From an uncultured Planctomycetia bacterium (GTDB lineage: Bacteria; Omnitrophota; Gorgyraeia; VGKH01; JBHPFN01): a DNA stretch of 64,000 nucleotides. The notes beneath the pieces were generated by a model. It had not been told where the DNA came from, did not search any database, and saw only the letters and a program-made list of their open reading frames with translations. Numbering within the stretch: position 1 is the first letter of the stretch; every line of letters begins with the position of its first letter. Made by a program: the position numbers and the translations under genes. The stretch covers positions 11,364 to 75,363 of the forward strand of contig CAYOSQ010000007.1 of the NCBI GenBank assembly GCA_964406665.1, read 5' to 3'. This document shows positions 1 to 62,469 of the stretch, piece after piece.

Positions 1-436
1 TCACTGCTGCTATTTTTGCAATAGCATAAGGTTCGTTAGTTAATTCAAGGCTTCCGGTTAAAAGAGAATCTTCTTTTATCGGCTGAGCAGTAAACTTTGG
101 ATAGATGCAGGATGAACCAAGATTTAAAAGTTTCCTTACTCCATGATTGTATGATGAATTAATAATATTGGCAGCAATTATAAGATTATCATAAATGAAT
201 TCTGCCTTATATGTAATATTTGCCAATATACCTCCAACCTTAGCTGCGGCAAGAAAAACATAATCAGGCTTCTCAACTTCAAAAAACTTATTTACTTCCT
301 GTTGATTCCTTAAGTCTAATTCTGAAGACGTCCTTAAAATCAAGTTATTATAATTATTTAATATAAGTTTATCTTTTATGGTTGAACCTACTAAACCAGC
401 ATGCCCTGCAATATAGATTTTTGAATTTTTTTCCAT
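1..436 (-). CDS. fcl: GDP-L-fucose synthase (GDP-4-keto-6-deoxymannose 3,5-epimerase/4-reductase), C-terminal part; the gene continues past the window start
   Basis: Reverse-strand translation from the ATG at 436 gives [20 protein letters not shown]...[19 protein letters not shown]..., the typical Fcl N-terminus with the glycine-rich NADP site. It lies directly downstream of gmd. It is absent from the ORF track because it runs off the window edge. Confidence 0.8.
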
Positions 437-444
437 CAAATTCT

Positions 445-16369: not shown

Positions 16370-16381
16370 TTATTATCAAGC

Positions 16382-17392: not shown

Positions 17393-17394
17393 AA

Positions 17395-19748: not shown

Positions 19749-20681
19749 TCAACTTTTAACTGCCTTAATGATTTCTTTTAAATCAATGACATCCATACAA
19801 TGCTTTTTTTGTTTACACTTAAAAGAATAACAAGGTAAACACTTATACATAGTTTTAGGCTTTATAACTATCCCTCTGCCGTAGAGATATACTTCTTTTT
19901 CATCAGTCGCACCAAAAAGGGTAATCACTTTCTTCTTAAATGCTAATGCCAAATGCAGGCCTAAGCTATCACTTGTTACAATAGTCTTACAAGAATTAAT
20001 CCAATCCATATAATCGTAGAGATTGTCCATTCCTTTTTGCCAAGAAACAGATAATTTATCTTTTTTTAGAAGTTTTTCTAGTTCTTTCCACTTTTTTGCG
20101 TTCATAGCTTTTGTAGGCCATTTCGAACCAACATAATAGTTAAAACCAACATCATACTTATTCTTTGTCTTTGGCTTATACCCGAGAGAATACTCTTGCT
20201 CTTTCCACTTCCCTCCGATCATTTCAACAATAATCTTCTGCCAGATGTTTCTTTGCCCTTTGGAAGCTTTTTCTGTAATGTATTCCTTAGCCACCATAGA
20301 CTGCATATAAGTATCATAAATACCTGTCTGAGAATTGAATCTAAAACCAATCCTTTCCCAAGCATCAATCATATCTGTTAATGCGCAAACGCCATCAATC
20401 TTTTCCAAATTGATAACAATGTCATATTTCTCACGCATAAGCACATAAGGAATAAACTCATCCCAGACTAAAAGCCTATCAATATGCTTATTGTTATTAA
20501 CTAAAGGAACTGCTTCGTTAGAGATAAGCCAGGTAATGTGCGAATTAGGGAACCTTTTCTTCAAAGGCTCTAAGATTACTGTACAGCGCACTACGTCGCC
20601 TAAGCTTACCACTTTGGTCATTTCCTGATCAAGAGTCTCAGAATAACCCATCTTTATTATTAATATTTTTTTATGTTCCAT
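19749..20681 (-). CDS. GT9-family glycosyltransferase (ADP-heptose:LPS heptosyltransferase-like)
   Basis: ILIIKMGYSETLDQEMTKVVSLGDVVRCTVILEPLKKRFPNSHITWL and VTSDSLGLHLALAFKKKVITLFGATD match RfaC/RfaF-type GT9. The true start is probably the internal Met MEHKK at 20681; the track ORF extends to 20729. Confidence 0.7.
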   Translation of the reverse strand: MEHKKILIIKMGYSETLDQEMTKVVSLGDVVRCTVILEPLKKRFPNSHITWLISNEAVPLVNNNKHIDRLLVWDEFIPYVLMREKYDIVINLEKIDGVCALTDMIDAWERIGFRFNSQTGIYDTYMQSMVAKEYITEKASKGQRNIWQKIIVEMIGGKWKEQEYSLGYKPKTKNKYDVGFNYYVGSKWPTKAMNAKKWKELEKLLKKDKLSVSWQKGMDNLYDYMDWINSCKTIVTSDSLGLHLALAFKKKVITLFGATDEKEVYLYGRGIVIKPKTMYKCLPCYSFKCKQKKHCMDVIDLKEIIKAVKS

Positions 20682-20685
20682 CTTA

Positions 20686-21624
20686 TTACCCTTTCCTGAA
20701 GATATAGTTCTCTTGTTTATCGTATTCACTTGGTGTTTTAGTTTTTTCCGAAGCTACAATTGCAAATCCTTTACTCTTTAAAATCTCCATAACTTTTTTA
20801 TGTTCTTTGAGATTATCAAAAAGTTCTATGTATATCTCCTGGACATAATTAAGTGTTTTACTTAAACCTTCGGTTACCATAAGTTCATTTGTATCAACAT
20901 CAATTTTTAACTTTGTAGGATAGGGTAGCTTAAATAATTTAATCATATCATCTATATTCATGCAAAAAGTATCCAGCTTAAACATATCTTTTTCATTAAT
21001 GTTAAATAATGGTTTTCTACCAACAGTATTTAAAGCTCCTCCTTTAGAAAATTCCCGTATATAAAAAGGTTTTAAAGCTGTAGTATCATCACAAGCTATG
21101 GGTACCGGAGTAATTAAATCATTCATTCTGTTTTTATAAATATTTGAATAAAGTGTTTGTAGATTGTTTATTTCTGGTTCGAATGCATACACCTTTACAC
21201 CCTTTGTTTTAGCAGCGTATAATGAATAACCACCTATGTTAGCTCCCACATCAAAGAAAATATCATCTTTTTTAAAAGAATCTATCCATTCAACCATAAG
21301 CTTTTCTTCCGTAAGCAAAGTTTGCGCCCTCCAAACCAACCTACCGTGCCCTGTGGAAAAGATAAGCTTTTCATTATTTGGTAACTTAACTTTTATTACC
21401 GGATCAAGCATTTGTTGAATTTCAACATATAAACGATTATTGCTGTTAAGCCTAAACATGACAATAATAACTTTTGCTAAAGTTCTTATAAATTTCACTA
21501 AAAAGCTAGGTTTATATCCATATTTTCCATCTTTTTTACTATCCGGTGATGGATATAGTAAATTATTTAACTTATCCTTAAAAGTCATAGCAAACCTTTC
21601 TTTTATTCTAGAATTCCTGACCAA
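20686..21624 (-). CDS. FkbM-family methyltransferase
   Basis: FFDVGANIGGYSLYAAKTKGVKVYAFEPEINN is the FkbM (Methyltransf_21) signature. Confidence 0.75.
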   Translation of the reverse strand: MVRNSRIKERFAMTFKDKLNNLLYPSPDSKKDGKYGYKPSFLVKFIRTLAKVIIVMFRLNSNNRLYVEIQQMLDPVIKVKLPNNEKLIFSTGHGRLVWRAQTLLTEEKLMVEWIDSFKKDDIFFDVGANIGGYSLYAAKTKGVKVYAFEPEINNLQTLYSNIYKNRMNDLITPVPIACDDTTALKPFYIREFSKGGALNTVGRKPLFNINEKDMFKLDTFCMNIDDMIKLFKLPYPTKLKIDVDTNELMVTEGLSKTLNYVQEIYIELFDNLKEHKKVMEILKSKGFAIVASEKTKTPSEYDKQENYIFRKG

Positions 21625-22448
21625 GGCAAAACAACAGAAATGTCTTTAGTATCCTTAAGCTTATGCTTAATTTCTGCCTGAATATCTTTATTATTGCTGC
21701 ACACCACAATAACGTCCCCATTTTTAAAATTTTCCACTCTTGGCAAGCGAAAGATTTTCTCGAACTTTCCTTTATAGCTATCGTCAAAATAGAAACAAAT
21801 TCCTCTATCTAAATTATTTCCTTGAACGAGCTCCTTAAATAAAGCCTGAAAATAATAAGAAACACCATAAAAAATGATTCGCTTGCCTTCAGAAGCCTTC
21901 TCACTTACTTTTTTTATAATTTCAGCTTTATTTATTTTAAACTTATCGAATAATGGTTTAACGTCAATTCTATCGCTGCCAGATTTCAGACTCTGTTTAT
22001 CTTTTCTAGCTAACACTCTTAAGAAATTTTTAGTATCACTATAGCAAATCTTAAAACCTTCTAAAGTATCTGATAAAGAACTAAGGTTAAAAAAGCTTAC
22101 GTGCTCAGGAGAAAAGTCTTCAACAAGAAATTCAAGAGAGTTATTCAAATATGGAATTTCGATAAAAAGTAATCCGTCATCATGCAATATTTCTTTTGCT
22201 TCAGCAATGATATTCTTCGAATTCTTCAAATGCTCTAAAGTATGATCTAAAATAATCAAATCGAATTTATAATCAAAAATGTCTTCTCTAAATTGTTTCT
22301 TTATTGTTGGTACTGATACATCGATATTCGCAGGATCAACACCCAAAATTTCCACAGAAGGATTCTTTTCCTTAATCATATACAAAATATCACCGCGGTT
22401 TGAGCCAATTTCTAAGATTTTAATATTTTTTTTTAGGCAACTTTCCAA
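21603..22448 (-). CDS. C-methyltransferase-like protein, SAM-binding plus C-terminal domain; the 3-prime fragment of a gene split by an A9 tract
   Basis: KILEIGSNRGDILYMIKEKNPSVEILGVDP...IILDHTLEHL is class I MT motif I/II, as in TylC3/NovU-type sugar C-methyltransferases. The ORF has no ATG; the track start is a TTG. Confidence 0.6.
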   Translation of the reverse strand: MESCLKKNIKILEIGSNRGDILYMIKEKNPSVEILGVDPANIDVSVPTIKKQFREDIFDYKFDLIILDHTLEHLKNSKNIIAEAKEILHDDGLLFIEIPYLNNSLEFLVEDFSPEHVSFFNLSSLSDTLEGFKICYSDTKNFLRVLARKDKQSLKSGSDRIDVKPLFDKFKINKAEIIKKVSEKASEGKRIIFYGVSYYFQALFKELVQGNNLDRGICFYFDDSYKGKFEKIFRLPRVENFKNGDVIVVCSNNKDIQAEIKHKLKDTKDISVVLPWSGILE

Positions 22449-22725
22449 TAATTAAATTAACTTTATCAATATTTTCTCTACTTCTTCTGGGAAACTCGAA
22501 TAAATCACTTTTTCTAAATTCTGCATAAACCTTTTTAATTATTTCATCATATTGCTTAGAATAAGCACTCCCCTGAAATACATAACCACAATCTTTACAC
22601 TGACTAATTAAAAACATCATGCTTCTTTCACTATTGGAAAAATACGCGCTTTCACTAGAATACACTTCCTCTAAATTAGAGCTTTCACACAGCGGACAGA
22701 TTGTACCTACTTTATTTTTTTTCAT
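22420..22725 (-). CDS. Zinc-ribbon N-terminal module (CPLC...CKDC) of the same C-methyltransferase-like gene; the 5-prime fragment
   Basis: C-x2-C ... C-x2-C Zn-ribbon, as found N-terminal to sugar C-methyltransferases. It ends in ...LPKKKY at an A9 run (22426-22434 on the + strand). Deleting one A fuses it in frame to 21603-22448. Confidence 0.5.
   Translation of the reverse strand: MKKNKVGTICPLCESSNLEEVYSSESAYFSNSERSMMFLISQCKDCGYVFQGSAYSKQYDEIIKKVYAEFRKSDLFEFPRRSRENIDKVNLIIGKLPKKKY
22426..22434. repeat. Homopolymeric T9/A9 tract at the junction of the two C-methyltransferase fragments
   Basis: Nine consecutive T (+ strand) seen directly. A -1 change restores a single ORF. Confidence 0.8.
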
Positions 22726-23898: not shown

Positions 23899-24850
23899 AT
23901 CCGGAAAACTTTTCATAAAACTTATTTGATTTAGGGAATTCCTCATCAAATAAATTCTTATATGTTGAATAAACCTCATTCTTATTTGTAGATGGAAGAG
24001 ATAGCATATATTTAAATAAAAACGCGATCTTTTCTTTTAATTTCTTAAATAACGGATCGTTTTTAAAACCATCAAATTTAACTTTTTTCTGATCTTTTGC
24101 TCGCTGCATTAAATAAATCGCAATATCAGTTGCATTATTATTCATAAGAAACAACCCCAGCAAAACAACGTTCTCTGCAATTTTTGTGCTATTTTGCTTA
24201 AAAATAATCTCCGGATCTCTGATCCACACTGTCTCACACCCAATTAGTTGTCCATATTTATTCGGAAGGGTGAACTTGCTTAATGCGTGGCCTCGTCCAT
24301 CATAGTTTAGGTTTATTAATTCGAATTTATGCTCTTTTAAGAAATTATGAATGTCTCCAAATAAAGGTGCACCTATATATACCGGAAGAAAATATGTCTC
24401 CAGCCTAATACCCAATACAGTTGAGTCGAGAACGCTTTCTGCTCCTTTTAGAACCTCTAATTCTGTTCCCTCTGTATCGATTTTTAAAAAATGAATATCT
24501 TTATTATGAAATATCGAATCAATTGTTTTAACTGCTACTTTCTTCTCCGAAACAATATCGGCTTCATTTACCATAAACATTTTCTTTTTTCTTAAGGCAG
24601 AATCATTGCTCAAGATTGAGCTTAAGCCATTATGAGCTCTTTGCTTAAAGTTCACCTTACCATCAGAGCTATAGAGCCCCTGGGAATAAACTTCAATATT
24701 CCTATTATCCGCATATTTTTTCCTTAAACGCAAAGCTTCTTTAAAATCCATTTCAAATAGATGAAAATTAGCAATGTCACACAGCTCTTTCCATGTTGGA
24801 TGCAACCCGTAACGCGCTCCCACATCAATAACATTACATTTTAATTTCAT
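23897..24850 (-). CDS. FkbM-family methyltransferase
   Basis: NVIDVGARYGLHPTWKE ... FkbM-type motif. 317 aa. Confidence 0.7.
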   Translation of the reverse strand: MKLKCNVIDVGARYGLHPTWKELCDIANFHLFEMDFKEALRLRKKYADNRNIEVYSQGLYSSDGKVNFKQRAHNGLSSILSNDSALRKKKMFMVNEADIVSEKKVAVKTIDSIFHNKDIHFLKIDTEGTELEVLKGAESVLDSTVLGIRLETYFLPVYIGAPLFGDIHNFLKEHKFELINLNYDGRGHALSKFTLPNKYGQLIGCETVWIRDPEIIFKQNSTKIAENVVLLGLFLMNNNATDIAIYLMQRAKDQKKVKFDGFKNDPLFKKLKEKIAFLFKYMLSLPSTNKNEVYSTYKNLFDEEFPKSNKFYEKFSG

Positions 24851-25929
24851 TTTTTGACTTCCTTTCTTGATTTAACATAGCAAAATTTACAGGCGCCTGG
24901 AATATTCATATCTAGATGTTTTTTTCTAAAATCTTTATATTGCTTAGAATTCCAAATTGATTTCAAATCACCCAACTTACCTAAACAAAAAATGTCAGGA
25001 TTACCTATCATGCAACAAGGTACAACCTTTTTATCCGAAGAAATAAAAGATCTCTCAAACGGCCAGGGACAAATGTTGTCTTTCGAATATTTTGTGGTAA
25101 TATCCCAAAATGATAAGTTTATATTTTCCTGGGCTGCCTGGTCTAACAAACTATCGATGTCTGATTGAGTGACGGCATTTGAAATGCGCTTAATTTTATT
25201 TTTCTTATCCCACTCTTTACTTCCCCATGCGCTTACATCTAAACTTATGGTTAATCTTTTGAATCCCAGTTTTTTCGCAAAAGTTGGGAATTTATGAAGC
25301 TCTTTAAAATTATCCTTTTGCAAGAGAGCCCACATTCTCGTTTTGTCAGTCCCAAATTTGTCGCAATACTCATTTATAAGCTTGCAGTTTTCTACAACAC
25401 GCTTAAAACGTGCGCCTTTTCTAATATTCTCATAAACGGATTTCGTGGTCCCATCTATGGAAATCTGCACTTCTCCATTAATAAAATCAACTATCTTCTT
25501 ATAATAGTCATTCTTATGGATTACAGTTGCATTTGTAGTAGTCCTAACCCAGATATCTTTCGCACTTGCATACTTAACCATCTCAATAAAATCGTCCTGC
25601 AGAAATGGCTCTCCCAGACCCTGAAGCTTAAGCTCGAAAACTCCTACTTGGTCATCAATAATTCTTTTGAAATCATCAAAACTAAGATCTGAGGCCCTCT
25701 TTTTTGATTTAAATGTTGATACCTGGCACATATCACAGCTTAAATTACACCTACTAACGTTCTCTATATCTAACTTAACAGGTAAATAATTAGGCTCTAT
25801 TGAGGTTTTCGAATTCTTGAATTTTTTATAGTTCTCATAACGCCCAGGGAACCTTTCAAAGCCCCGCTCTAAAGTTTCATTATAGGCAGCAAGGTCCGCC
25901 GAAGGTTTAGGAAATTTAAGCTTTTTCAT
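24847..25929 (-). CDS. Radical SAM enzyme with a C-terminal SPASM/twitch-like Cys cluster
   Basis: CNLSCDMC (CxxxCxxC), GLGEPFL glycine-rich SAM motif, and C-terminal CPWP...CCMIGNPDIFCLGKLGD...ACKFC. Confidence 0.8.
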   Translation of the reverse strand: MKKLKFPKPSADLAAYNETLERGFERFPGRYENYKKFKNSKTSIEPNYLPVKLDIENVSRCNLSCDMCQVSTFKSKKRASDLSFDDFKRIIDDQVGVFELKLQGLGEPFLQDDFIEMVKYASAKDIWVRTTTNATVIHKNDYYKKIVDFINGEVQISIDGTTKSVYENIRKGARFKRVVENCKLINEYCDKFGTDKTRMWALLQKDNFKELHKFPTFAKKLGFKRLTISLDVSAWGSKEWDKKNKIKRISNAVTQSDIDSLLDQAAQENINLSFWDITTKYSKDNICPWPFERSFISSDKKVVPCCMIGNPDIFCLGKLGDLKSIWNSKQYKDFRKKHLDMNIPGACKFCYVKSRKEVKK

Positions 25930-26731
25930 ACTCTATCCTTTGCCTAACCCAAGTTCTCAAAACTTCCTCTGAATTATTGGGGAAAAAATTGTATTTTTTT
26001 TGTGCCTTTTTAATCGATAAGTTAAAAAAGTTTCTATGCCTTTCTTCAATTAGTAGCTTAGACGGAGAATTAAGCTTGTCTTTAACAATTTCAATTACTT
26101 CTTTCAATGTTTTGTCTTTATTCGATGCTAAATTAATTACGTCAAATTTTTCTTTCAAATACAAATTACTTACGAACCTAAATATATCCTCTATTGATAT
26201 AAAATTGTTAAAGATTCTATCTGAATTAAATATCTCAACGTGTTCTTCTTTTAATAACTTTAAGAAACTTCTAGAAAGCAAGTTTGTTTCATTTTTAAAA
26301 CTTAGTATTGCAGGAAAGCGCAAACATAAACAATCCAATTCACTACTCTCTAGCATATCCTCACCTAAAAGCTTAAGCGCGCCATACAAACAAGGAGTCA
26401 AGCCGATATCATCTTCACATACGTTTTCCTTATCAATATCTCCATAAACTGAAGCTGCAGAGAAAAAAATCAGTTCTTTTATTTTATTCTTTTCAGCAAA
26501 ATTAATTACTTTCTTAAGAAAAGCTATGTTAGATTCATGCATTTCTGAATCAGTGGCAGGTGGCGATTTAGCTGCTAAATGTAAAATTCTTTTAGCACTT
26601 ACATCTTGATTCAAATCTAACGGTGCGATATCTGCCCCAGAATCTTTAAACAGCTTATACAAAACGGAGCCTACGCCACCAAGATGCCCTGTCATTAATA
26701 TTTTTTCCATTTGCTTACTCCTTTTAAACAA
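25916..26731 (-). CDS. NAD(P)-dependent epimerase/reductase (short extended-SDR, RmlD-like)
   Basis: ILMTGHLGGVGSVL (Rossmann), SAASVYG, LYGALK (YxxxK). Confidence 0.6.
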   Translation of the reverse strand: MFKRSKQMEKILMTGHLGGVGSVLYKLFKDSGADIAPLDLNQDVSAKRILHLAAKSPPATDSEMHESNIAFLKKVINFAEKNKIKELIFFSAASVYGDIDKENVCEDDIGLTPCLYGALKLLGEDMLESSELDCLCLRFPAILSFKNETNLLSRSFLKLLKEEHVEIFNSDRIFNNFISIEDIFRFVSNLYLKEKFDVINLASNKDKTLKEVIEIVKDKLNSPSKLLIEERHRNFFNLSIKKAQKKYNFFPNNSEEVLRTWVRQRIEYEKA

Positions 26732-27845
26732 AATCTAAATGCTCTCTGTCAGCATTTAGATATTCTAAAATCATCCTGTTTTTTGCATCTGCCACACAAT
26801 GATGATTACAAACCAAAGTTGGATTAATCTTAAAAAACTTGTCTTTACTACTAAACCAAAAATCCTTAAACCTTTTATCCTTTATTGTTCCTATTAAACC
26901 ATCTGCAAGATTATATGCCTTATCCTGACAAGGATAAATATTTAAATCTGCCCCTATAACCGGTAAGATTTGCAAATACGGGCACCATTTATACTTCTTT
27001 TCAAATCCATCTTCAAGCTCATGATATGAATCATAAATCTCAAAAGAATCATCTGCGAATTCTTCACTTGCTCGATTAATTTGACATTTTATAAGATCCA
27101 AAAGAGACTTGTGATACTTTTTATTTTTTTCCGCAGAATTACTGATAACACACGGGGAAACTTTAACGCTGTCAATTTTAATTTTTTTTAGCTTTTCAAT
27201 AAAATCAAATATGTGATTAGCATTATATTTATCAACTATAATCACTACACCTAAATAGCAGTTTCCTTTAATTCTTTTAAAATCTTCCATGTTTTTCATT
27301 ATCTTGGGAAACTCATCTTTCTTCACTCCTCTGTATTCTGCATAGCTTTCTTCATCCCAACCATCCATTGAAACCCTAAGCCAAGTAGCATTCTTGGCAA
27401 ATATTTCGGCAATTTCCCCTTCAAGCAAAGAACCATTGGTAAGCGCAGAAAATTTAATTGATGTCTTAGATAGCTTTTTTATAGTTTCTAGAATATGTGG
27501 ATAGCAAAACGGCTCTCCCCCTCCGCTAAAAGTAACTGCTTTAACTCCCATTTCAACTAAATCATCAATAATTTCAAACATTTTATCTCTAGGGATAAAA
27601 TCTTTCTTAGACATATCCTGTCCGAGTTGAAGATCATCTGTCTTATAAGCACAATAACTACAGTTATGCTGACACGTATTAGTAGGCTTTATCCTGATGT
27701 GTAGTGGTGATAATATTTTTGAATTTTCTTTTACAAGAGAATCAAGCTTGTCTTTGAAATGAAATATCTTAAGCTTCGTATAGAGAATTTTCTTATTTTT
27801 CATTTTATTCAAAATATATAAACTCAAAATCTCCGCTGTAGTCAA
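26724..27845 (-). CDS. Radical SAM enzyme (SPASM-like C-terminus)
   Basis: CQHNCSYC (CxxxCxxC), FSGGGEPF, and C-terminal CPY...YPCQD...CNHHC. Confidence 0.8.
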   Translation of the reverse strand: MTTAEILSLYILNKMKNKKILYTKLKIFHFKDKLDSLVKENSKILSPLHIRIKPTNTCQHNCSYCAYKTDDLQLGQDMSKKDFIPRDKMFEIIDDLVEMGVKAVTFSGGGEPFCYPHILETIKKLSKTSIKFSALTNGSLLEGEIAEIFAKNATWLRVSMDGWDEESYAEYRGVKKDEFPKIMKNMEDFKRIKGNCYLGVVIIVDKYNANHIFDFIEKLKKIKIDSVKVSPCVISNSAEKNKKYHKSLLDLIKCQINRASEEFADDSFEIYDSYHELEDGFEKKYKWCPYLQILPVIGADLNIYPCQDKAYNLADGLIGTIKDKRFKDFWFSSKDKFFKINPTLVCNHHCVADAKNRMILEYLNADREHLDFV

Positions 27846-28467
27846 ATTCCTTCAACAGCCACTCCCACTCTTGTTTGCCGAAGAAAGACTCACAAGTAAG
27901 CGCCCAACACTGAAGGTTAAAAAGCTCGGTTTCGTTTCTGAAGCTTTCCACAACTACGTATTTATTCTTTCCGACTCTCTCCATTTCACCAATTGCCTTT
28001 TTTAAATCGAAGATCGCCAAATTATGCAATGTCGTAATCGAAATCACCAAATCGAACTCATTATCGTCAAACGCATATTTATCCTGCGCCCTATGCTGAA
28101 AAAGATTCGACCTCACCTCTTCTTTAGCATTCTCTAGCGCATACCCTGAAATATCTATTCCTTTTACAGTACAATTTGACAACAATTGAGTAAATTCGTA
28201 TAAAAGATGTGCCTTACCACAACCTACGTCAAGAATCTTAGCGTTATCTTTCAATCCATAGACATCAATTAATTTTTCGGCAACGACCTTCCATCTGCCG
28301 TCATATCTATACCCTCCATATCCAAATCGCCTATTTCCATCCCAGTAATCCTGGCCATATTCTTTTGCCACTTTCATACAATGTACCTTTTTATCCTGCA
28401 TTCTGTCGATATAATCTCTTTTTGTTTTTTTATGAAGTGGCGTAACAATATTCATTAACTTACCCAT
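27805..28467 (-). CDS. Class I SAM-dependent methyltransferase
   Basis: ILDVGCGKAHLLYEF motif I. The start is probably the internal Met MGKLMNIV at 28467 (the track ORF extends to 28545 and overlaps the transketolase gene). Confidence 0.7.
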   Translation of the reverse strand: MGKLMNIVTPLHKKTKRDYIDRMQDKKVHCMKVAKEYGQDYWDGNRRFGYGGYRYDGRWKVVAEKLIDVYGLKDNAKILDVGCGKAHLLYEFTQLLSNCTVKGIDISGYALENAKEEVRSNLFQHRAQDKYAFDDNEFDLVISITTLHNLAIFDLKKAIGEMERVGKNKYVVVESFRNETELFNLQCWALTCESFFGKQEWEWLLKEFDYSGDFEFIYFE

Positions 28468-28474
28468 GACTACC

Positions 28475-29389
28475 TCACTTTGTGATTTTCTCGATATAGA
28501 TAGAAATCTCTTCAGCTGAAATTCCGAAATAATCGCGCATTCCATTTAGATCTTTGATTTCATGAATGAATTTATTTCTGATTCCCAGATTATGAAGCTT
28601 CCATTTAGGATTTCTCTTTAAGTATTCTTGAGCAATTATTGAACCTAAGCCACAAGTTAAATAATGTTCTTCAACAACAACCAAATTTTTTACATCTCTG
28701 CAAAGAAAAAAAAGTTTATCAAAATCAAGTGGCATGATCATTGGATTAGATATAAGTTTTGGCTTAATGCCTTTTTTAATCAATATGTCTCTAGCCTTTA
28801 TCACTTCTATACCGATTGAGCCATGAAAAACAATAGCTACGTCCTCTCCATCATTTATCAACTGTGGCTGAGATATATCAAACTTAGAATCTTTATGGAT
28901 ATTTGGTTCGCCTTTTTTTGCCAACCTTACATATAGTGGAGTTTCGCAGTTAAGTGAAAACTCTGCAGCTAATTTTGATTCTATAAGGTCTGCTGGAGAA
29001 ATCACAGCAAGGTTCGGCAATGTCTGAGCAATGCCCAAATCTTCTATAGAATAATGCGTCATCCCCTGCAATGGATAAGTTATGCCGCTTCCAATTCCCG
29101 TTAAGGTGACCGCAAGTCTCTGATAACAGATATCATTTCTGATTTGCTCATAGCATCTATACAATAAGAATGGAATTATGTTATAGGCATACACTTTAAA
29201 TCCAGCCAGCGAAAGACCAGCAGAGAAACTAATCATGTTTTGCTCGGCAATACCTAAATTAAGAAAATTATCAGCGCAACCTTCTTTCAATTCATCAAAC
29301 ACGCCTAAGCCCGCATCACCGCTGATTATAAACATATCTTTGCGTTTTTTTGCGTTATTTAAAACAGTATTGACGAATGCATTTCTCAT
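28475..29389 (-). CDS. Transketolase, C-terminal (pyrimidine-binding) subunit
   Basis: ...GDAGLGVFDELKEGCADNFLNLGIAEQNMISFSAGLSLAGFKVYAY... is collinear with split-transketolase B subunits. Confidence 0.85.
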   Translation of the reverse strand: MRNAFVNTVLNNAKKRKDMFIISGDAGLGVFDELKEGCADNFLNLGIAEQNMISFSAGLSLAGFKVYAYNIIPFLLYRCYEQIRNDICYQRLAVTLTGIGSGITYPLQGMTHYSIEDLGIAQTLPNLAVISPADLIESKLAAEFSLNCETPLYVRLAKKGEPNIHKDSKFDISQPQLINDGEDVAIVFHGSIGIEVIKARDILIKKGIKPKLISNPMIMPLDFDKLFFLCRDVKNLVVVEEHYLTCGLGSIIAQEYLKRNPKWKLHNLGIRNKFIHEIKDLNGMRDYFGISAEEISIYIEKITK

Positions 29390-30171
29390 GATAACTCTTT
29401 TAAGGCCTGCTTTTTATGCTCATCTCTTACAATATAATAATGCCAGATGAGTTCATTCTCCATAAAAGAAACACCCTTACCCTTAACTGTACAGGCTAAA
29501 ATTATTTTTGGCTTTCCCTGTGAATCCTTTTTTAAAGCACTTTCTATAGCAGCGTGATCATGGCCGTCAACCTCTTCAACATACCAGCCAAACGCTTCCC
29601 ACTTAGCCTTTAAAGGCTCAAAATAGCATATTTCCTTTGCCCTGCCATAACCTTGTAAGTTGTTATAATCCATGATTGCTGTAAAATTATCTATTTTTAA
29701 CTGTGCAGCAAACAATGCCCCCTCCCAAATAGAACCTTCCTGAGATTCACCGTCACCGATAACTGCAAATACCTTCCTGTCTAAATTATCTTTCTTAAAC
29801 CCATACGCCATACCTAAGCCAATATTAAAACCATGACCCAAAGAGCCTGTTGACACTTCAATACCTTTGGCTGTAAATCTATCTAAATGGGCAGGCAGCG
29901 TTCCATCATTCTTCAGATAGCCATCCAAAAACTTTCTTTCCATGAGGCCGCGCTCTACCAAAGTCGTATACAATGCCATATCTGCATGACCTTTACTCAA
30001 GACAAAAATATCCCTTTTATCCCAATCATCAAATTTTAATATCCTATAATATAGAACTGTCAGAATATCGACGCAAGAAAGACAGGAACCAACATGTGGA
30101 CACTTAGATCTATGCGCAAGTTCAATGATCTCTTTTCTTATATTATTCGCAATTATTTTTAATTCTTCCAT
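29386..30171 (-). CDS. Transketolase, N-terminal (thiamine-diphosphate-binding) subunit
   Basis: ...SKGHADMALYTTL..., GSLGHGFNIGLGMAY, and GDGESQEGSIWEGALFA ThDP motifs. Confidence 0.85.
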   Translation of the reverse strand: MEELKIIANNIRKEIIELAHRSKCPHVGSCLSCVDILTVLYYRILKFDDWDKRDIFVLSKGHADMALYTTLVERGLMERKFLDGYLKNDGTLPAHLDRFTAKGIEVSTGSLGHGFNIGLGMAYGFKKDNLDRKVFAVIGDGESQEGSIWEGALFAAQLKIDNFTAIMDYNNLQGYGRAKEICYFEPLKAKWEAFGWYVEEVDGHDHAAIESALKKDSQGKPKIILACTVKGKGVSFMENELIWHYYIVRDEHKKQALKELS

Positions 30172-30173
30172 AG

Positions 30174-31235
30174 TTAAATAAAGTTTACATGCTCAACTTC
30201 AGGATGTTTAAGTTCCCATAAAAAACTATTAATCTGATGATGCCTGCAGTTAGGCTGACACATTTTTTTATCATAAGTTTTATTGATATAGTCAATAGTC
30301 TTCCGCCTTTTACTCCACACCTGTGAAAATGATTTTTCAAAAATATTTCCCAGAGATGTTTTTTTGTCATGCTGATAAGAAAAACATGTATAAACTTCTC
30401 CATCTTCACGGATATAAATGATAAACGGAAGACCATAGCACTCTTTATAAAACCTATCTTTGGAAATATTACTTCTACTTCTGACGATAAAAGAAAAACT
30501 CTCATCGGATAAAGATTCTGCTGACCTACTTAAAGATTTAATAAAATCATCAGTTAACCAATCATTATTTAAACCAGATTGATTTTTGCTATGTCCATAA
30601 AAATACTTTACAACAAAATAATCAACACCTGCTTTCTTCATTGTCTTAGCACAATCAACTACAAAATCTTTATTATCATCTAAAATAATATATTGTATGC
30701 CTATAGTAATGTCTGCATTTAGTTCATTTTTTTTAACTCTTAGTTTCTGAATATTATTTAAAACTAAAGAATAGTCTTCCTTTTTTGCTTTATGAACCTT
30801 TGCATAATTTTCGGCGTTTCCTGAATTAAATGAAAACCTTATCCAGGTAAGAGATTTTGCCAAAATACCAAGATCATCTTCTTTAAGCAAAGCTCCGTTA
30901 GTGCTTAAGGCTACGTCGATGCCTTTCTCTTTAGCATATGCAATTGATGGAACAGTCTCTTGGTTTATCAGGGGCTCACCAGTACCGGCAAAAACCATTG
31001 ATTTAATACCTGAATCTTTTAACTCATCAATCAAAGTTTTCATTCTGCCTTGTTTAAACATCCCCTTATGGCCTAAATATTCATAATGGCAAAAAATGCA
31101 GCCGTGATTACAATTTGCAGATGGTGAAATTTCTGCATAAATAGGCTTTATGTTTTTTCCGGACAAAAAATCAACAAGTGCTTGCGGGTGATACAAAAGC
31201 TTATGTCCGTCTAGCTCGAATTTAGCCACTAACAA
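30174..31235 (-). CDS. Radical SAM enzyme (SPASM-like C-terminus)
   Basis: CNHGCIFC (CxxxCxxC), FAGTGEPL, and C-terminal C...C...CQPNC. Confidence 0.8.
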   Translation of the reverse strand: MLVAKFELDGHKLLYHPQALVDFLSGKNIKPIYAEISPSANCNHGCIFCHYEYLGHKGMFKQGRMKTLIDELKDSGIKSMVFAGTGEPLINQETVPSIAYAKEKGIDVALSTNGALLKEDDLGILAKSLTWIRFSFNSGNAENYAKVHKAKKEDYSLVLNNIQKLRVKKNELNADITIGIQYIILDDNKDFVVDCAKTMKKAGVDYFVVKYFYGHSKNQSGLNNDWLTDDFIKSLSRSAESLSDESFSFIVRSRSNISKDRFYKECYGLPFIIYIREDGEVYTCFSYQHDKKTSLGNIFEKSFSQVWSKRRKTIDYINKTYDKKMCQPNCRHHQINSFLWELKHPEVEHVNFI

Positions 31236-32127
31236 CCTCTTTCTCAGACTCAGATAGATCGCGGATATTTTTAATTTCTACTGAAGTATGTCCGAATATC
31301 TGCAAACGGTTAGTCTTGACCTTTATATCACAAGGGTTACAGTGACCAAACAGATAACAAGGCCGATAAATGTCCTCTATTTGAAAATTCTCATCAAGAA
31401 TATGTCCGATGGGTTGCCTTTTAGAATAAAGGTCTGAATGGCATCGGTAAATGTTCCCTGCAGGACCAACGATGAGTTCCGTTGTTTTGCATTCGCAGAA
31501 TTTATTTATCTCTTCGCTTACTGCTAAAGGATATTTATATGTACCGTGCCATTTTTTACCATCATACCCAAGATATTCTTTTGTCCTAAAATCTATACCG
31601 AGCTTTTTACAGCGCCCTTGTATATCTCTTATATGCTCAGCATTTTCTGGTGTCATCACAGAATATAATCCTACATAAAATCCTGCATCTGCCAACCGCA
31701 GAATTTTTTTGATAATTTCTTCGATATCATTTTGTCCTGGATGATAGCTTGCTCTGATTGCGGCATATTTTGCTTCACGGGTAAACTTCGAAGGCGGGAT
31801 ATTCTTGATAAACTCATCAACCTCAAACATCAAATTAGTAAGTAGATCCAGCTTTATGTTATCTCTAATACCATTAACTATCTCATAAAATCCTGGATGA
31901 ATCGTTGGTTCTCCGCCTTGAAAAGTCACCGGTAAATCTTCCCTGTTAATCTGTATTCTATTTATCGCATCAATCCACTCTTTAGCAATTAATGATGCGC
32001 GAGTTATTTCATTTCTCGGTGATTTTAAATCTTTATAATTAATACAATAATCACAAGATAAATTACAGTTAAGCGTTAAAAACATTGCAACATAATTATA
32101 GTGTTTTGGGATAGGAATAGGTTTCAT
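31222..32127 (-). CDS. Radical SAM enzyme
   Basis: CNLSCDYC (CxxxCxxC), FQGGEPT. Confidence 0.8.
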   Translation of the reverse strand: MKPIPIPKHYNYVAMFLTLNCNLSCDYCINYKDLKSPRNEITRASLIAKEWIDAINRIQINREDLPVTFQGGEPTIHPGFYEIVNGIRDNIKLDLLTNLMFEVDEFIKNIPPSKFTREAKYAAIRASYHPGQNDIEEIIKKILRLADAGFYVGLYSVMTPENAEHIRDIQGRCKKLGIDFRTKEYLGYDGKKWHGTYKYPLAVSEEINKFCECKTTELIVGPAGNIYRCHSDLYSKRQPIGHILDENFQIEDIYRPCYLFGHCNPCDIKVKTNRLQIFGHTSVEIKNIRDLSESEKEVVSG

Positions 32128-32129
32128 TT

Positions 32130-33773
32130 TTATAACTGTAAATACTTATTAGCAAATTTTCTAACAGATTCTCTGTGAGATACTGCAATTATAGTTAACT
32201 CAGGATAATTCTTACGGATTTCCACAAAAATTTTCTCTTCAGTGATTTCGTCTATATTTGCTGTTGCTTCATCTAGAATTAACACGCTTGGATTGTATAG
32301 CAAGGCCCGAGCAAGAGAAATGCGTTGCTTCTGCCCCGCTGAAATCCCTTCTCCTGATTCTCCAAGCTTATAGGATAATCCACCATCCAATTCATGTATA
32401 AATGTACAGCAGGAAATATTTAGCACCTTTTCAAGATCATTGCTTGCCAAATCTTTATTTCTTACTCCGTAAAAAAGATTTTCTCTAACAGTGCTGTCGA
32501 TGAGAAATGGATCTGTCCCGGAATATCCAACATTGCTTCTAAAAACTTCCCGGCTCCACAAAGACAAGTCAACATTATTCCATTTAATATCTCCGCTAAG
32601 TTTCTCCACAATTCCTAAGATCGTCATAAGAAATGTTGTCTTTCCTTTTCCGGATTCTCCCTTAACCAGCAAAAAATCACCTTTATTAATTTCGAGATTA
32701 ACATCTTTAAGCAGTTCTGCGTTTCGTCCAATGCTTAGATCTTTAACGCTAAGACTTTCAGGAACGCCTCTATATGATTTAAGGTCTTCTCTAGCTTCGT
32801 TTTCAGTCTTATCTGAAAACATTTCTGAATACTCTAGAAAATTTGTTAAAAATGGATAACAAAACTGAACATGGCCAAAAGACCTAGCGAGTTGAGAAAT
32901 AGCTTGAGGCAATCTAATCAATAAATATATAAATGTAATAAGAGTACCACTTTCGACGTAATTTTCTCTGTGGTTACCCCAAATAGTAAATATCACTATT
33001 AACACCCCGGCAAAAAGTGGCCAAGTATTATTAACTGAAATCCCAACTGCATACTTTATAAACTGCTTGTAAATAGTATTGTTAACAGTATTTAGATTAC
33101 TTAGTTCTCGATTATTTGTTCCAACTATTCTTAAAAAATAAATATTGCGTAAATCCCGTAATATATTTAAAGAAAACATTTTAAGGTTTTTATGGAAACT
33201 TCCTGCATAAGACTGGTAAGCACTTTTTAGAATAATTGTCGGGAAGATCATGACCGCTACTGCAACTAAGGCAACAAGTGTAAGGTTTGCAGAAATAACT
33301 GCCATCCCCACTAGAATAGTAAGCATTAGGAAAAAAGCGCTGATCATTTGGCAAAAAGATGAAACAAAATTGCCTACCTTGGGAGTGAGATTAGTTGTTA
33401 TATGACTAACTTCTGCAACAGAAAGATAACTATTTTCTGCATCAGTCCCTAAAATTGCAAGTCCTAGCATTCTCCTTACTCTGGAGCTAAAAGTTTCATA
33501 TGAAAAATCCGGCAGGAAACTGGCTAAAAAATAAAAACAAAAACGCACTACTGCAACAGAGGCAAGAAAAACTGTTGGCATTGTAGCAAAAGGCAGCAAA
33601 ATACTTGGGATGTTCTTTGATTGAATCAAATCAAAGCTAACTAAAAAGTTTTGCAGAGCAAAACCAAAAATCATCTCGATAAGGCCTAAGAAAAACCCTA
33701 AGAATATCGTGGTAATAAAAAGAAAAAATACCTTTTTGCCAAATAATCTTTTAACTTTTTCAAAAAAAGTCAT
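32130..33773 (-). CDS. ABC exporter, fused permease plus ATPase half-transporter
   Basis: N-terminal ~6 TM helices. Walker A GESGKGKTT, signature ISAGQKQRISLARAL, Walker B ILDEATANID. Confidence 0.85.
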   Translation of the reverse strand: MTFFEKVKRLFGKKVFFLFITTIFLGFFLGLIEMIFGFALQNFLVSFDLIQSKNIPSILLPFATMPTVFLASVAVVRFCFYFLASFLPDFSYETFSSRVRRMLGLAILGTDAENSYLSVAEVSHITTNLTPKVGNFVSSFCQMISAFFLMLTILVGMAVISANLTLVALVAVAVMIFPTIILKSAYQSYAGSFHKNLKMFSLNILRDLRNIYFLRIVGTNNRELSNLNTVNNTIYKQFIKYAVGISVNNTWPLFAGVLIVIFTIWGNHRENYVESGTLITFIYLLIRLPQAISQLARSFGHVQFCYPFLTNFLEYSEMFSDKTENEAREDLKSYRGVPESLSVKDLSIGRNAELLKDVNLEINKGDFLLVKGESGKGKTTFLMTILGIVEKLSGDIKWNNVDLSLWSREVFRSNVGYSGTDPFLIDSTVRENLFYGVRNKDLASNDLEKVLNISCCTFIHELDGGLSYKLGESGEGISAGQKQRISLARALLYNPSVLILDEATANIDEITEEKIFVEIRKNYPELTIIAVSHRESVRKFANKYLQL

Positions 33774-34436: not shown

Positions 34437-35009
34437 TCAAATAGTATCAGTTTTCTTAATTTGACTTAATGCGCATGGATTTGTACACCCCGGGTTAAAG
34501 CAATGCAGATCAATGTCAATGTTTTCACTCAATATTTTGATGTAATTAAACTTAGGGGGCACGTTATCTTTTTGCTCAAATGGACCCAGTTTTGTCTCGG
34601 TGTAAAGAACATAATCCGTTAAGGGAATCCAAAGGTGATATTTCCCGGCAGGATTCATATAAACAAAATTTTCTTGAGGGGTAAGTAAAGTTTTTTTGAG
34701 GAGATCCCCATTATCATCAAACATGAGGGCAAGCATTTCTCCTTCAATCATTTGCAGAAATTCATCTTTCTCAATATGTTTGTGTGGTTTTCTACATTTT
34801 CTATCTTTATATTCTAAGATTACCATCGCGTGTAATAATTTATCACAACTCTGATGCATGCAAAATCTTATATTCGCATTATTACCATTGCGAGAAATGA
34901 GTTTCATTTTCTCAATATTTTTCCGATGAAACACAGCAGGCTCACTATCTACAAAATAAGTGATTGATTTCGCCTTTATTTCTTTGAAATTATCAATTTT
35001 TTCATTCAT
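34437..35009 (-). CDS. Cupin-fold protein (possibly WbuC-like) with a Cys-rich tail
   Basis: Small beta-rich ORF with HxH-type residues (IRFCMHQS...HAMVI...PHKH) and C-terminal HCFNPGCTNPC. The family call is weak. Confidence 0.3.
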   Translation of the reverse strand: MNEKIDNFKEIKAKSITYFVDSEPAVFHRKNIEKMKLISRNGNNANIRFCMHQSCDKLLHAMVILEYKDRKCRKPHKHIEKDEFLQMIEGEMLALMFDDNGDLLKKTLLTPQENFVYMNPAGKYHLWIPLTDYVLYTETKLGPFEQKDNVPPKFNYIKILSENIDIDLHCFNPGCTNPCALSQIKKTDTI

Positions 35010-35179: not shown

Positions 35180-36595
35180 TTAGGTAGGTAGTTTTAATGA
35201 TTGTTTCATTCGAATGGATTCGTAAAGATTCTTTCTTAACATAAGTAAAAGCCCAATAAACAATGCTAAGCCAGCTATTACATATTTGTGAACAAGAAGA
35301 GTTCCTCCTCCGGGTAATATTTTTACAAAGACGCTATCAGTAATCGCAGCAATTGTAAAGCCAGATAAGCAAATTAACGCTCCTAAAATGTTCTCTTCTT
35401 TCTTGCGCTGCAGAATCTCCTTTAAAACATAAGCAAAACCAGGTATAAACCAAATGGTATTCATTACCCAGGTTCTAACCCCTGATAAAACTATAACAAC
35501 TAATACAATCTGCCAGAATAGGAACTCTTGGGCATTGGACCATTCAAACCTAGCCTCGAAACTTTTAAATAAATTAAGAAAAACAACAATAATAAATGTA
35601 GCTAAAATTAAAAAGGATAAAAAAGTATCTTTATGGTCAGCAAATTTAGTTCGATTGAACATAATATATAGCCTTCTACCTAATTTAGTCCCTTTTATAG
35701 CTTTTACAAGCGTAGCATTATGAGAAAACCTTAAAGTTGAAGAACTATAATAAACTCCGTCTTTTACGGTCTTTCCAGCCGGTGTATTAGTGTACTTTAA
35801 ATATAAAGGAACAATCATCATAGGCAACATCATATTCATAGTCCCTTCTTCTTGAAACTGAGATATTCTCGGAAGATGCTTTGAAAAATAGTCGAGATTT
35901 AAAGTTCTACAAGAGAAAAATGAAACTATCACAAGTATGCCTATGCCAATAGCATATCCAGAAAGAACCCTCCATTTTCTCCTCAACATTAAAAAAGGAA
36001 CTAAAAATAAACAATAGGGTTTGAAAAATGTTGCCAGCGAGATTAATCCTCCGGAAAGATACTCTCCCTTATTCTGCTTAAGCATAAACATCATAGCTAG
36101 CATTATCAACAATAAGTTTATGGCATCAATTTGTCCTCTTTCAATTTCCGCCAGAAAAGGAAAAAATAAACAAATAAAGATACCGCAACTCAAAAGTACT
36201 TCAGCGGACAATTCTAACTTTATTATGTTACAAGCGATAATCAACGAAGAAATAACAGATAGAATAAGTATCGATATCCAAACCCACTTAGCAACTTTGT
36301 AAGGAAGCAAGGCTAATGGTCTTGTTAAAAAAGCAACAAGTGGAGTATAGGTAAATCTGCTGTGTTTATAAATTGCTACTCCATCCCAAATAGGTGGATC
36401 TCTGCGGATATGGTTTTTGTAAGGAGATAATCCGCTATTCATTGACTCAGCAGCCGTATAAGAAGCTGAGAAATCCATCTGCAGGCTTTCATTGCCAAAC
36501 TCAACAACATAGCTTATAAAGCGCACAGAAACACAAATGAAAATAATAGATAAAATAATTCTTATAGCTAGTTTACGAGATATTTTTCTTTGCAT
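35180..36595 (-). CDS. GT87/DUF2029-family integral-membrane (GT-C) glycosyltransferase
   Basis: MDFSASYTAA...SPYKNH...FTYTPLVAFLTRPLALLPYKVAKWVW matches the DUF2029 N-terminal signature (DF..Y...G..PY....FtYPP..a.l..PlalLp). Polytopic. Confidence 0.65.
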   Translation of the reverse strand: MQRKISRKLAIRIILSIIFICVSVRFISYVVEFGNESLQMDFSASYTAAESMNSGLSPYKNHIRRDPPIWDGVAIYKHSRFTYTPLVAFLTRPLALLPYKVAKWVWISILILSVISSLIIACNIIKLELSAEVLLSCGIFICLFFPFLAEIERGQIDAINLLLIMLAMMFMLKQNKGEYLSGGLISLATFFKPYCLFLVPFLMLRRKWRVLSGYAIGIGILVIVSFFSCRTLNLDYFSKHLPRISQFQEEGTMNMMLPMMIVPLYLKYTNTPAGKTVKDGVYYSSSTLRFSHNATLVKAIKGTKLGRRLYIMFNRTKFADHKDTFLSFLILATFIIVVFLNLFKSFEARFEWSNAQEFLFWQIVLVVIVLSGVRTWVMNTIWFIPGFAYVLKEILQRKKEENILGALICLSGFTIAAITDSVFVKILPGGGTLLVHKYVIAGLALFIGLLLMLRKNLYESIRMKQSLKLPT

Positions 36596-38922: not shown

Positions 38923-39054
38923 AATTTCAAAAGTACCTTTCAATGAAATAGTTACAGGTATATTGTATAGCTCTGTAAGAAAAATATCAAGCTAAGCTAC
39001 GATTATCTATTTTTTTGTTGCCAGCTTAACATTTATAGTATATGATTTGATAAT

Positions 39055-42008: not shown

Positions 42009-42030
42009 ACTATCCTCATTCACCCTTAAC

Positions 42031-58444: not shown

Positions 58445-58445
58445 A

Positions 58446-59909: not shown

Positions 59910-59913
59910 TTTA

Positions 59914-60981: not shown

Positions 60982-60993
60982 GTTTTATGCTCA

Positions 60994-61605: not shown

Positions 61606-61608
61606 AGC

Positions 61609-62001: not shown

Positions 62002-62005
62002 ATAA

Positions 62006-62455: not shown

Positions 62456-62469
62456 TAGCTTCCTCCTTA

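Follow-up and report, generated by a model that had tools for sequence, protein, structure and literature searches.

A split-gene transketolase with an altered substrate pocket in a radical-SAM-rich glycan operon of an uncultured Omnitrophota bacterium

What does a transketolase do in the middle of a glycan operon? The question is raised by a stretch of 64,000 nucleotides from an uncultured bacterium of the Omnitrophota (GenBank assembly GCA_964406665.1, contig CAYOSQ010000007.1, positions 11,364 to 75,363 of the forward strand; hereafter the window), in which two overlapping genes, TKN and TKC, encode the halves of a transketolase. An earlier note on this DNA had recognized the two halves, placed them within a glycan operon, and proposed that they form a dedicated enzyme, not a housekeeping one, which makes a branched-chain or higher-carbon sugar by an established route. 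Both the gene assignment and the location are borne out, the former by the open reading frames (ORFs), their Pfam matches (Table 1) and the ATGA shared by the TKN stop and the TKC start (a 4-bp overlap), and the latter by the glycosyltransferase, Neu, methyltransferase and exporter genes found on the same strand. We consider it very likely that the pair is dedicated to a role in the glycan pathway and does not belong to the pentose-phosphate pathway. Four lines of evidence, all of them indirect, lead to this view and are presented below: a conserved cassette in all 28 close relatives, replacement of pocket residues throughout the subfamily, a score under the curated transketolase cut-off, and the sugar-nucleotide or glycan context of a wider clade.

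The two genes have the architecture of split transketolases, that is, a gene for the thiamine diphosphate (ThDP)-binding PP domain followed by an adjacent, co-oriented gene for the pyrimidine-binding (Pyr) and C-terminal domains. They are tightly packed among their neighbors, with 2 nt between the end of the upstream radical S-adenosylmethionine (SAM) gene, rSAM2, and the start of TKN, and 8 nt between the TKC stop and the most likely start of the methyltransferase gene MT31 at 28467, which gives a protein of 220 amino acids (aa), as in all homologues. Among solved structures, the split transketolase from Carboxydothermus hydrogenoformans comes closest to the pair, with E values of 1.5e-64 and 1e-37 (6YAK/6YAJ) and identities of 45% for the N chain (6YAK chain A) and 30% for the C chain. 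Like the window pair, the Carboxydothermus enzyme carries the PP domain on one chain and the Pyr and C-terminal domains on the other, with the ThDP/Mg motif and the catalytic residues in place. Judged by these features, the two genes would encode a heteromeric ThDP-dependent carboligase of the transketolase family.

The active site of transketolases sits at the subunit interface. The window protein, a subfamily of close relatives (28 TKN and 25 TKC sequences) and a more distant group were aligned to E. coli TktA, whose residue numbers are used here; pairwise HMMER alignments to human transketolase and to 6YAJ gave the same residue mapping, so that two independent alignments agree. In canonical enzymes the substrate phosphate is bound by R358, S385, H461 and R520, D469 picks the stereoisomer, namely (2R)-hydroxy-aldehyde acceptors, and a set of histidines binds the donor hydroxyls (PMC11387542). 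The cofactor and catalytic residues D155, G156, N185, E411 and F437, as well as the donor-binding histidines H26, H66, H100, H261 and H473, are invariant in the window protein and the subfamily. A hydroxylated C2 donor is favored because H100 and H473 are retained, and H100L is one of the changes introduced to engineer the use of pyruvate (PMC10787763). The enzyme can thus probably still form the ThDP-bound dihydroxyethyl unit.

The acceptor side of the pocket is different. Only R358 of the phosphate-binding set is unchanged, being invariant in subfamily TKC, while S385G, H461G and Q474Y are found in 25 of 25 sequences and R520K in 24 of 25. D469 is replaced by Q, M, A or G in all 25, with Gln in the window protein, and F434I is present in the subfamily including the window protein. 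The window protein has the pattern R-G-E-I-F-G-x-H-Y-K-[RK], which all 25 subfamily members share with minor variation at the last two positions; most pairs of the distant group carry the E. coli pattern R-S-E-[FY]-F-H-D-H-Q-R. In the Carboxydothermus C chain, too, H461, D469, Q474 and R520 are kept, in place of which the window protein carries G, Q, Y and K. In our reading, these replacements suggest that the enzyme has lost its pocket for short sugar phosphates bearing a (2R)-hydroxyl, and that the two glycines widen the pocket while the basic residues stay, which would make room for a bulkier anionic acceptor, for instance a nucleotide sugar.

The pair was also scored against curated models. 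On the NCBI transketolase equivalog NF004559 (cut-off 488 bits; summing the scores of two halves is an approximation) the window pair obtained 226 + 119.5 = 345 bits, below the cut-off, and the pair of the isolate Geobacter sp. OR-1 (locus L033), a member of the subfamily, 216 + 113 = 329 bits. Three pairs from the distant group scored 334 + 325 = 659 (L040), 359 + 310 = 669 (L073) and 233 + 266 = 500 bits (L070). Subfamily TKC scores about equally on DXS and transketolase models, and on the dxs model TIGR00204 (cut-off 466) TKN and TKC reached 37.7 and 110.8 bits, which, with the division into two chains, does not make the pair a DXS. In Pfam and NCBIfam (E ≤ 0.001) the pair matched no model of the acetohydroxyacid synthase (AHAS) or pyruvate decarboxylase type, and so falls outside the YerE superfamily; its matches were to transketolase, DXS, phosphoketolase and 2-oxoacid dehydrogenase E1-type models, with TKC also weakly matching 2-oxoacid:acceptor oxidoreductase. 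Of the features tested that define a canonical transketolase, three are thus missing from the pair, namely the full phosphate-binding set, residue Asp469 and a score at or above the curated cut-off.

To see how the pair is placed in other organisms, 185,579 species genomes, one per species, were scanned by a method based on peptide patterns, which favors close relatives. The scan yielded 80 loci. ORFs of at least 90 aa were called in these loci by a mechanical procedure, those of the close group were clustered, and all loci were searched with the proteins of the window operon. By TKN identity the loci fell sharply into two groups, 28 at 62–80% and 52 at ≤49%. The 28 close loci are spread over about six phyla (Omnitrophota, Candidatus Brocadia and other Brocadiaceae, Geobacteraceae, Pirellulales, Nitrospira, Thermodesulfovibrionales and Desulfobulbales) and include that of Geobacter sp. 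OR-1 (Geobacteraceae). The 52 distant loci come from Firmicutes, Saccharibacteria, Bacteroidales and others, and also from Nitrospirales, Thermodesulfovibrionia and Planctomycetia.

Genes of a common cassette accompany the pair in 28 of 28 close loci. TKN is joined by TKC in 25 of the 28, by an rSAM2-type enzyme with a SPASM domain, often in two copies and the most conserved partner of the pair, in 23, and by a GT9-family glycosyltransferase in 22, the window GT9 being 42–56% identical to the GT9 proteins adjoining the pair in relatives. MT31 and the radical-SAM enzyme rSAM3 are each found in 16, adjoining one another in nearly all, and rSAM1 in 13 by clustering (a tblastn search with a distant member detected it in 20 of 31 loci). 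An RmlD-like short-chain dehydrogenase/reductase (SDR) directly follows TKC in 10, and most of the remaining close loci have RmlD-like or other extended SDRs, GT2 glycosyltransferases and several B12-radical-SAM genes. By the search with window operon proteins, none of the 52 distant loci had radical-SAM, GT9 or MT31 neighbors. Absence of the pair from the corresponding cluster of close relatives, which the earlier note had named as evidence that would count against a dedicated enzyme, is not what we see, since the nearest named relative, an Omnitrophota single-cell genome (L011), has a syntenic cluster that includes the pair, with TKN at 80% identity. Identity of 62–80% across phyla fits horizontal spread of an accessory cassette, and the subfamily appears to move between phyla as part of this radical-SAM-rich unit.

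Additional members and variants of the cassette were observed. Protein identity led to three more neighborhoods with the same core, in a Novimethylophilus metagenome-assembled genome (MAG), a 609-kb MAG contig and a short contig named as Deferribacteres. The first two add TylC3-type C-methyltransferases, a WbuC cupin, a DegT aminotransferase and a hexapeptide acetyltransferase; the TylC3/DegT/acetyltransferase set is typical of the tailoring of nucleoside diphosphate (NDP)-keto-deoxysugars. The WbuC cupin recurs in the cassette, with homologues in L013, L015, L020, L092 and L093, NeuB in L017 and L028, and NeuA with NeuC in L020. In several relatives, including L012, L013, L022 (10888–12471) and L029 (1858–3069), TKN and TKC are separated by inserted ORFs, which are either membrane-protein-like (403–527 aa) or small (~100 aa), and in two Brocadiaceae MAGs (L024 and L035) the cassette stops after TKN, with no TKC in the ~6–10 kb of downstream flank. 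The inserted ORFs and TKC-less loci suggest decay or rearrangement of the cassette. In three Geobacter/Desulfobulbales loci (L014, L025 and L036) ResB cytochrome c biogenesis genes lie directly upstream of the GT9-rSAM2 part, and CcsA-like genes were confirmed in L014 and L025; this placement of cytochrome genes may be coincidental.

The altered pocket is not confined to the 28 close loci. Searching TKC against 1.84 billion cluster representatives (50% identity) returned 906 proteins at E ≤ 1e-30, and residues were counted in the 134 full-length sequences among the best 150 of these. Of the 134, all have E411 and H473, 132 have Gly461 and 122 have Ile434; Asp469 is kept in only 3, with mostly L, A or Q instead, and position 520 is Lys in 82 and Arg in 35. 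The window subfamily, recognizable by its Tyr474, is therefore, as judged from these residues, a branch within a large non-canonical clade of split transketolases. A pair from a Bacteroidaceae contig (L037; TKC at 1702–2637), 49% identical, has the intermediate signature R-G-E-I-F-G-L-H-H-K-G, which is also the commonest pattern of the wider clade.

Seven members of the wider clade were looked up; three lay on contigs too short to tell, and all four loci with informative flanks proved to be sugar-nucleotide or glycan operons. In L095/L096 an NTP-transferase, a NUDIX protein and two extended SDRs precede TKN and TKC, which are followed by GT2, DegT, GT2, Wzy and Bac_transf. L097 has an rSAM-SPASM enzyme, TKN, TKC, an RmlD-like SDR, a SPASM protein, a methyltransferase and glycosyltransferases. 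L099 runs from GT4 and Bac_transf through TKN and TKC to a TylF-type methyltransferase, DegT, a methyltransferase and a PglF-like 4,6-dehydratase, and L102 from an HldE-like gene and an extended SDR through TKN and TKC to a zinc-dependent alcohol dehydrogenase, a kinase, an SDR, two methyltransferases and an RmlD-like SDR. These layouts share a logic of activated sugar, carbonyl-making enzyme, transketolase pair, reductase and methyltransferase. Some more distant pairs may have come to similar surroundings on their own: three Gemmatimonadota loci (L061, L068 and L050), with pairs 42–43% identical, have a DmhA-like extended-SDR gene directly upstream and, in two of the three, GT4 nearby, and the TKC of L061 has pocket residues that are still near-canonical. 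Transketolases of glycan loci may thus have arisen more than once.

If the pair acts in a glycan pathway, which reaction it performs has to be read from the pocket and the partner enzymes. Profiles of the rSAM2 and GT9 families, and rSAM3, were compared with solved structures. The rSAM2 family matched best the cytosylglucuronate decarboxylase BlsE (3e-17) and DesII (1.5e-16), followed by MoaA, CteB, anSME and BtrN; the best solved relatives of rSAM3 were TYW1, viperin-like enzymes, MoaA, BlsE and DesII; and the GT9 family matched the GT9 structures 3TOV and 1PSW, including heptosyltransferase II. BlsE and DesII abstract hydrogen from the sugar ring of a nucleoside or nucleotide sugar, and DesII is also able to oxidize a sugar hydroxyl to a ketone. 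The likenesses of rSAM2 and GT9 are weak and support a role on sugars but no particular reaction; by analogy, rSAM2 is a candidate generator of a sugar carbonyl.

Taken together, transfer of a C2 ketol unit onto the carbonyl of a nucleotide sugar is the best-supported mechanism, and we regard it as probable, though well short of certain. A hydroxymethyl-ketone donor, either hydroxypyruvate or a ketose, would form dihydroxyethyl-ThDP, as the retained donor-binding histidines suggest, and a neighboring enzyme would make a carbonyl on a nucleotide-activated sugar; in the window this would most likely be the BlsE/DesII-like rSAM2, and in other loci it could be a 4,6-dehydratase or an HldD-like SDR. 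Addition of the C2 ketol would then give a hydroxyacetyl-branched sugar if the acceptor is a ketone, or a sugar two carbons longer if it is an aldehyde, so that the predicted product is either branched or chain-extended. The adjacent SDR would reduce this product, the adjacent methyltransferase and radical-SAM enzymes would tailor it, and the GT9-like or another transferase of the operon would place it into the glycan.

Known systems give this mechanism partial precedent. The branching of NDP-keto-sugars by a C2 or longer unit is established for ThDP enzymes of the YerE (decarboxylase-family) and E1 types, while split-gene transketolases have been proposed for the hydroxyacetyl branch of miharamycin and amipurimycin but never shown to act in vitro, and none of 13 further Streptomyces split-transketolase candidates has been studied in vitro, as a 2025 review states (PMC12247030). 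The earlier note's description of the route as established therefore holds for YerE- and E1-type enzymes and goes too far for the transketolase family, where it has only been proposed. The miharamycin and amipurimycin enzymes, compared here through the review's description only, resemble the window pair in belonging to a sugar pathway downstream of a presumed keto-forming enzyme. They are found in nucleoside-antibiotic clusters of Streptomycetes, whereas the window subfamily occurs in surface-glycan loci of mostly anaerobic Gram-negative lineages and, unlike them, is accompanied by radical-SAM and GT9 genes. YerE and YerF, of the yersiniose A pathway in O-antigen-type loci, follow the same logic, from NDP-sugar to keto-sugar, ThDP-dependent C–C bond formation and an adjacent reductase, and the window likewise has an extended SDR two genes downstream of the pair. 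However, YerE, a member of the decarboxylase (AHAS-like) superfamily, works with pyruvate or longer 2-oxo acids, while the window enzyme belongs to the transketolase superfamily and keeps the histidines for a hydroxylated donor; in our reading, the pair would resemble the YerE/YerF logic from outside that family. The only paper found on transketolase subunits in polysaccharide loci describes the wps-2 exopolysaccharide cluster of Actinoplanes missouriensis, which contains a methyltransferase, a TKN of ~270 aa, a TKC of ~300 aa, DegT and Wzx/Wzy (PMC13390465). These genes were annotated by domain only and radical-SAM or GT9 partners were not reported; the likeness of layout extends to L099. Our search found no literature joining a transketolase with radical SAM and heptosyltransferase, or with radical SAM and nonulosonic acids.

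Several points weigh against C2 transfer to a nucleotide sugar. Known GT9 enzymes act with ADP-heptose, which fits a sugar-phosphate route as well, and because R358 and a basic residue at position 520 are retained, a phosphate-bearing substrate is still conceivable. HldE- or GmhA-like genes that flank the pair in three loci (L019, L020 and L102) would suit such a route too. No 4,6-dehydratase adjoins the pair in the window operon. The only one in the window is Gmd (445–1599, minus strand), a GDP-mannose 4,6-dehydratase (E 1e-144), so the source of the acceptor carbonyl is drawn from the weak analogy of rSAM2 with DesII and BlsE. We considered Gmd itself as the source of a 4-keto acceptor and rejected it, since the next gene, cut off by the window start so that only its 5' part is present, is GDP-L-fucose synthase-like (1–1599, minus strand, for the two), and Gmd most simply forms a GDP-fucose pair with it. 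In addition, calling the distant group housekeeping-type is a label that we infer from residues, scores and neighbors, and demonstrated examples of a ketone or an NDP-sugar as acceptor are lacking for the transketolase family (PMC12247030).

The alternative that gains most from these points is precursor supply, in which the pair would make sedoheptulose-7-phosphate or a non-standard heptulose or octulose phosphate, to be activated by GmhA-type and HldE-type enzymes and transferred by GT9. Making a ketose from an aldehyde and a C2 ketol is what transketolases natively do, no transferase is more conserved as a partner than GT9, R358 together with Lys/Arg at 520 and 521 could still hold phosphate, and Gly385 and Gly461 could simply lengthen the channel for a longer acceptor. 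In L020, SIS/GmhA-like and HldE-like genes lie directly upstream of rSAM2-TKN, HldE-like genes are also present in L019 and L102, HddA/HddC/DmhA-like genes in L038 and a DmhA-like gene in L041, and heptose oligomers have been reported in the S-layer glycans of anammox bacteria (bioRxiv 10.1101/2020.12.03.409086). Nevertheless, every member carries substitutions at the stereo-selecting Asp469 and at two of the four residues that bind phosphate, an HldE-like gene is found within 10 kb in only 2 of 28 close loci (in one of them with a GmhA-like gene) and neither is in the window, central metabolism already provides sedoheptulose-7-phosphate, and the recurring partners are SDRs of the NDP-sugar type, C-methyltransferases and DegT. 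Precursor supply is therefore kept as a rival but not preferred, and we think it unlikely.

The remaining alternatives concern the donor, the fate of the C2 unit, and the premise of a glycan role. A pyruvate-using carboligase like DXS or YerE, adding an acetyl (hydroxyethyl) branch to a keto-sugar without a glycolaldehyde unit, would agree with the nearly equal scores of TKC on DXS and transketolase models and with the use of 2-oxo acids by all characterized sugar-branching ThDP enzymes. It is made distinctly improbable by TKN, which is clearly transketolase-like (226 bits vs 37.7 for dxs), and by the invariant donor-hydroxyl binders H26, H100, H261 and H473, H100 being among the residues changed to engineer pyruvate use. 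Transketolase-like enzymes are also known to feed glycolyl units into the assembly of naphthyridinomycin and quinocarcin, and the presence of NeuC, NeuB and NeuA in the same operon and of DegT aminotransferases as frequent neighbors would suit a generator of glycolyl units, in which dihydroxyethyl-ThDP is oxidized and the glycolyl group acylates an amino sugar or nonulosonic acid. However, the annotated neighbors (ORFs ≥90 aa only, so that a small carrier could be missed) include no lipoyl/E2-like or acyl-carrier partner, and a 101-aa ORF at 22420–22725 is zinc-ribbon-like, with no carrier-protein features; we give this idea very little credence. Least credible of all, and close to being set aside, is the view that an ordinary pentose-phosphate transketolase lies in a glycan operon by chance. 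Although the pair agrees with real transketolases in its split architecture and in every cofactor and catalytic residue, such an enzyme would not be expected to keep its cassette in 28 of 28 loci across phyla, with an altered pocket, a model score under the threshold, a patchy distribution, and 62–80% identity across phyla vs ≤49% to ordinary split pairs. No pentose-phosphate genes were found near the pair in the annotated window operon. It was on the cassette, the replaced residues, the missed cut-off and the wider-clade context that the earlier note's distinction between a dedicated and a housekeeping enzyme found support.

C2 transfer onto a nucleotide sugar could be taken one step further, in a tentative proposal that we regard as more doubtful than the transfer itself. 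The cassette rSAM1-rSAM2-TKN-TKC-MT31-rSAM3-SDR with GT9 might constitute an oxygen-independent route to an undescribed sugar, in which a radical-SAM enzyme would oxidize or dehydrate a nucleotide-activated hexose or heptose to a carbonyl without the usual alpha-hydroxyl, the altered transketolase would extend or branch it by two carbons, possibly giving a C8 or C9 skeleton, and the SDR, methyltransferase and further radical-SAM enzymes would finish the sugar. If this is true, higher-carbon or hydroxyacetyl-branched glycan sugars would for the first time be traced to a transketolase, by a route distinct from the NeuB/KdsA aldol, LmbR transaldolase and YerE routes and common to anammox bacteria, Geobacteraceae, Nitrospirota and Omnitrophota.

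Whichever sugar is made, the data suggest a clade of split transketolases much larger than the 13 Streptomyces sequences. It is recognizable from sequence, with at least 132 representatives (50% identity) carrying Gly461, and across bacteria it is found in loci for sugar nucleotides and glycans. One branch is tied firmly to the radical-SAM/GT9 cassette and occurs in environmentally important anaerobes, namely anammox bacteria, Geobacteraceae, Nitrospirota and Omnitrophota. The signature R358, G385, I434, G461, non-Asp469, H473, Y/H474 and usually K520 should allow annotators to avoid the label of pentose-phosphate transketolase, and would be of use in metabolic reconstructions of uncultured organisms. 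The clade would also offer natural transketolases that may accept ketones or bulky non-phosphorylated acceptors, a range that biocatalysis groups seek by engineering D469, R520 and H461. Finally, unusual monosaccharides are predicted on the surfaces of bacteria that carry the cassette, of which Geobacter sp. OR-1 is a cultured example.

Table 1. Coordinates of the transketolase pair and cassette-related genes in the window.
Feature	Position	Strand	Matches and remarks
TKN, ThDP/Mg-binding PP-domain subunit, 261 aa	29386..30171	-	PF00456 Transketolase_N, E 4.8e-32; NF004559, 226 bits over model positions 15–279
TKC, Pyr and C-terminal-domain subunit with non-canonical substrate pocket, 304 aa	28475..29389	-	PF02779 Transket_pyr, E 1.1e-23; PF02780 Transketolase_C, E 2e-12
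rSAM1, radical-SAM enzyme, weakly STM4011-like	31222..32127	-	PF04055; NF038073 1.1e-11, under its cut-off
rSAM2, radical-SAM/SPASM enzyme	30174..31235	-	PF04055, PF13186
MT31, class-I SAM methyltransferase, directly 3' of TKC	27805..28467	-	PF13847 2e-21
rSAM3, radical-SAM enzyme paired with MT31	26724..27845	-	PF04055 3.6e-22
Extended SDR, NDP-sugar epimerase/reductase type	25916..26731	-	PF01370, PF04321; top NCBIfam match ADP-heptose 6-epimerase, far under its cut-off
rSAM4, second radical-SAM/SPASM enzyme	24847..25929	-	PF04055, PF13186; common to Omnitrophota and Brocadia loci
GT9-like glycosyltransferase, heptosyltransferase family	19749..20729	-	PF01075; heptosyltransferase I/II/III models match both halves
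WbuC-family cupin (DUF6016)	34437..35009	-	TIGR04366 1.4e-21, over its cut-off; PF19480

The window, which is an exact match to marine metagenome contigs, carries these genes in a single-strand glycan operon of ~33 kb, in which all genes from ~36595 down to 3161 lie on the minus strand with short gaps. In the order of transcription the operon starts with a GT87 protein, a WbuC-type cupin, a small regulator-like protein and an ABC exporter, and continues with rSAM1, rSAM2, TKN, TKC, MT31, rSAM3, the extended SDR and rSAM4. Then follow an FkbM methyltransferase, UDP-galactopyranose mutase, two more methyltransferases, GT9 and a TIGR04372 glycosyltransferase, and the tail consists of NeuB, a gene without an assigned role, NeuC, NeuA, and more methyltransferases and glycosyltransferases, with a Wzx-GT2 fusion last. 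A glycan locus would not usually have as many radical-SAM genes as the four found within 7.3 kb around the pair (24847–32127, minus strand); another, B12-binding, is located shortly beyond the operon (37513–38943, minus strand), and related Geobacteraceae loci have up to five or six radical-SAM genes per 20 kb.

The nonulosonic acid genes occupy 14484–18429 (minus strand), where NeuC scored over its curated cut-off, NeuB just under that of N-acetylneuraminate synthase, and the cytidylyltransferase is PseF/NeuA-like; the protein between NeuB and NeuC has 336 aa and no family match. A second gene of the UDP-GlcNAc 2-epimerase family is present at 41959–43128 (plus strand). Two types of export are encoded in the one operon, an ABC exporter (32130–33773, minus strand) with weak likeness to the PglK flippase model, and, as the last gene (3161–5644, minus strand), a protein of 827 aa in which a Wzx-type flippase (Polysacc_synt/MatE) is fused to a GT2 domain. 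Roughly 20 kb from the operon lies a gene for an STT3-type oligosaccharyltransferase of 822 aa (54415–56883, plus strand; PF02516, E 4e-20), and there are two further GT-C-like membrane proteins, PMT_2 (44135–45967, minus strand) and the GT87 protein (35180–36595, minus strand). The locus could thus serve protein N-glycosylation and need not make lipopolysaccharide or capsule. The glycan region is flanked by genes of type II secretion or type IV pili (57830–63684, minus strand), which encode GspF-like, GspK-like and GspM-like proteins and a PilM-PilN fusion.

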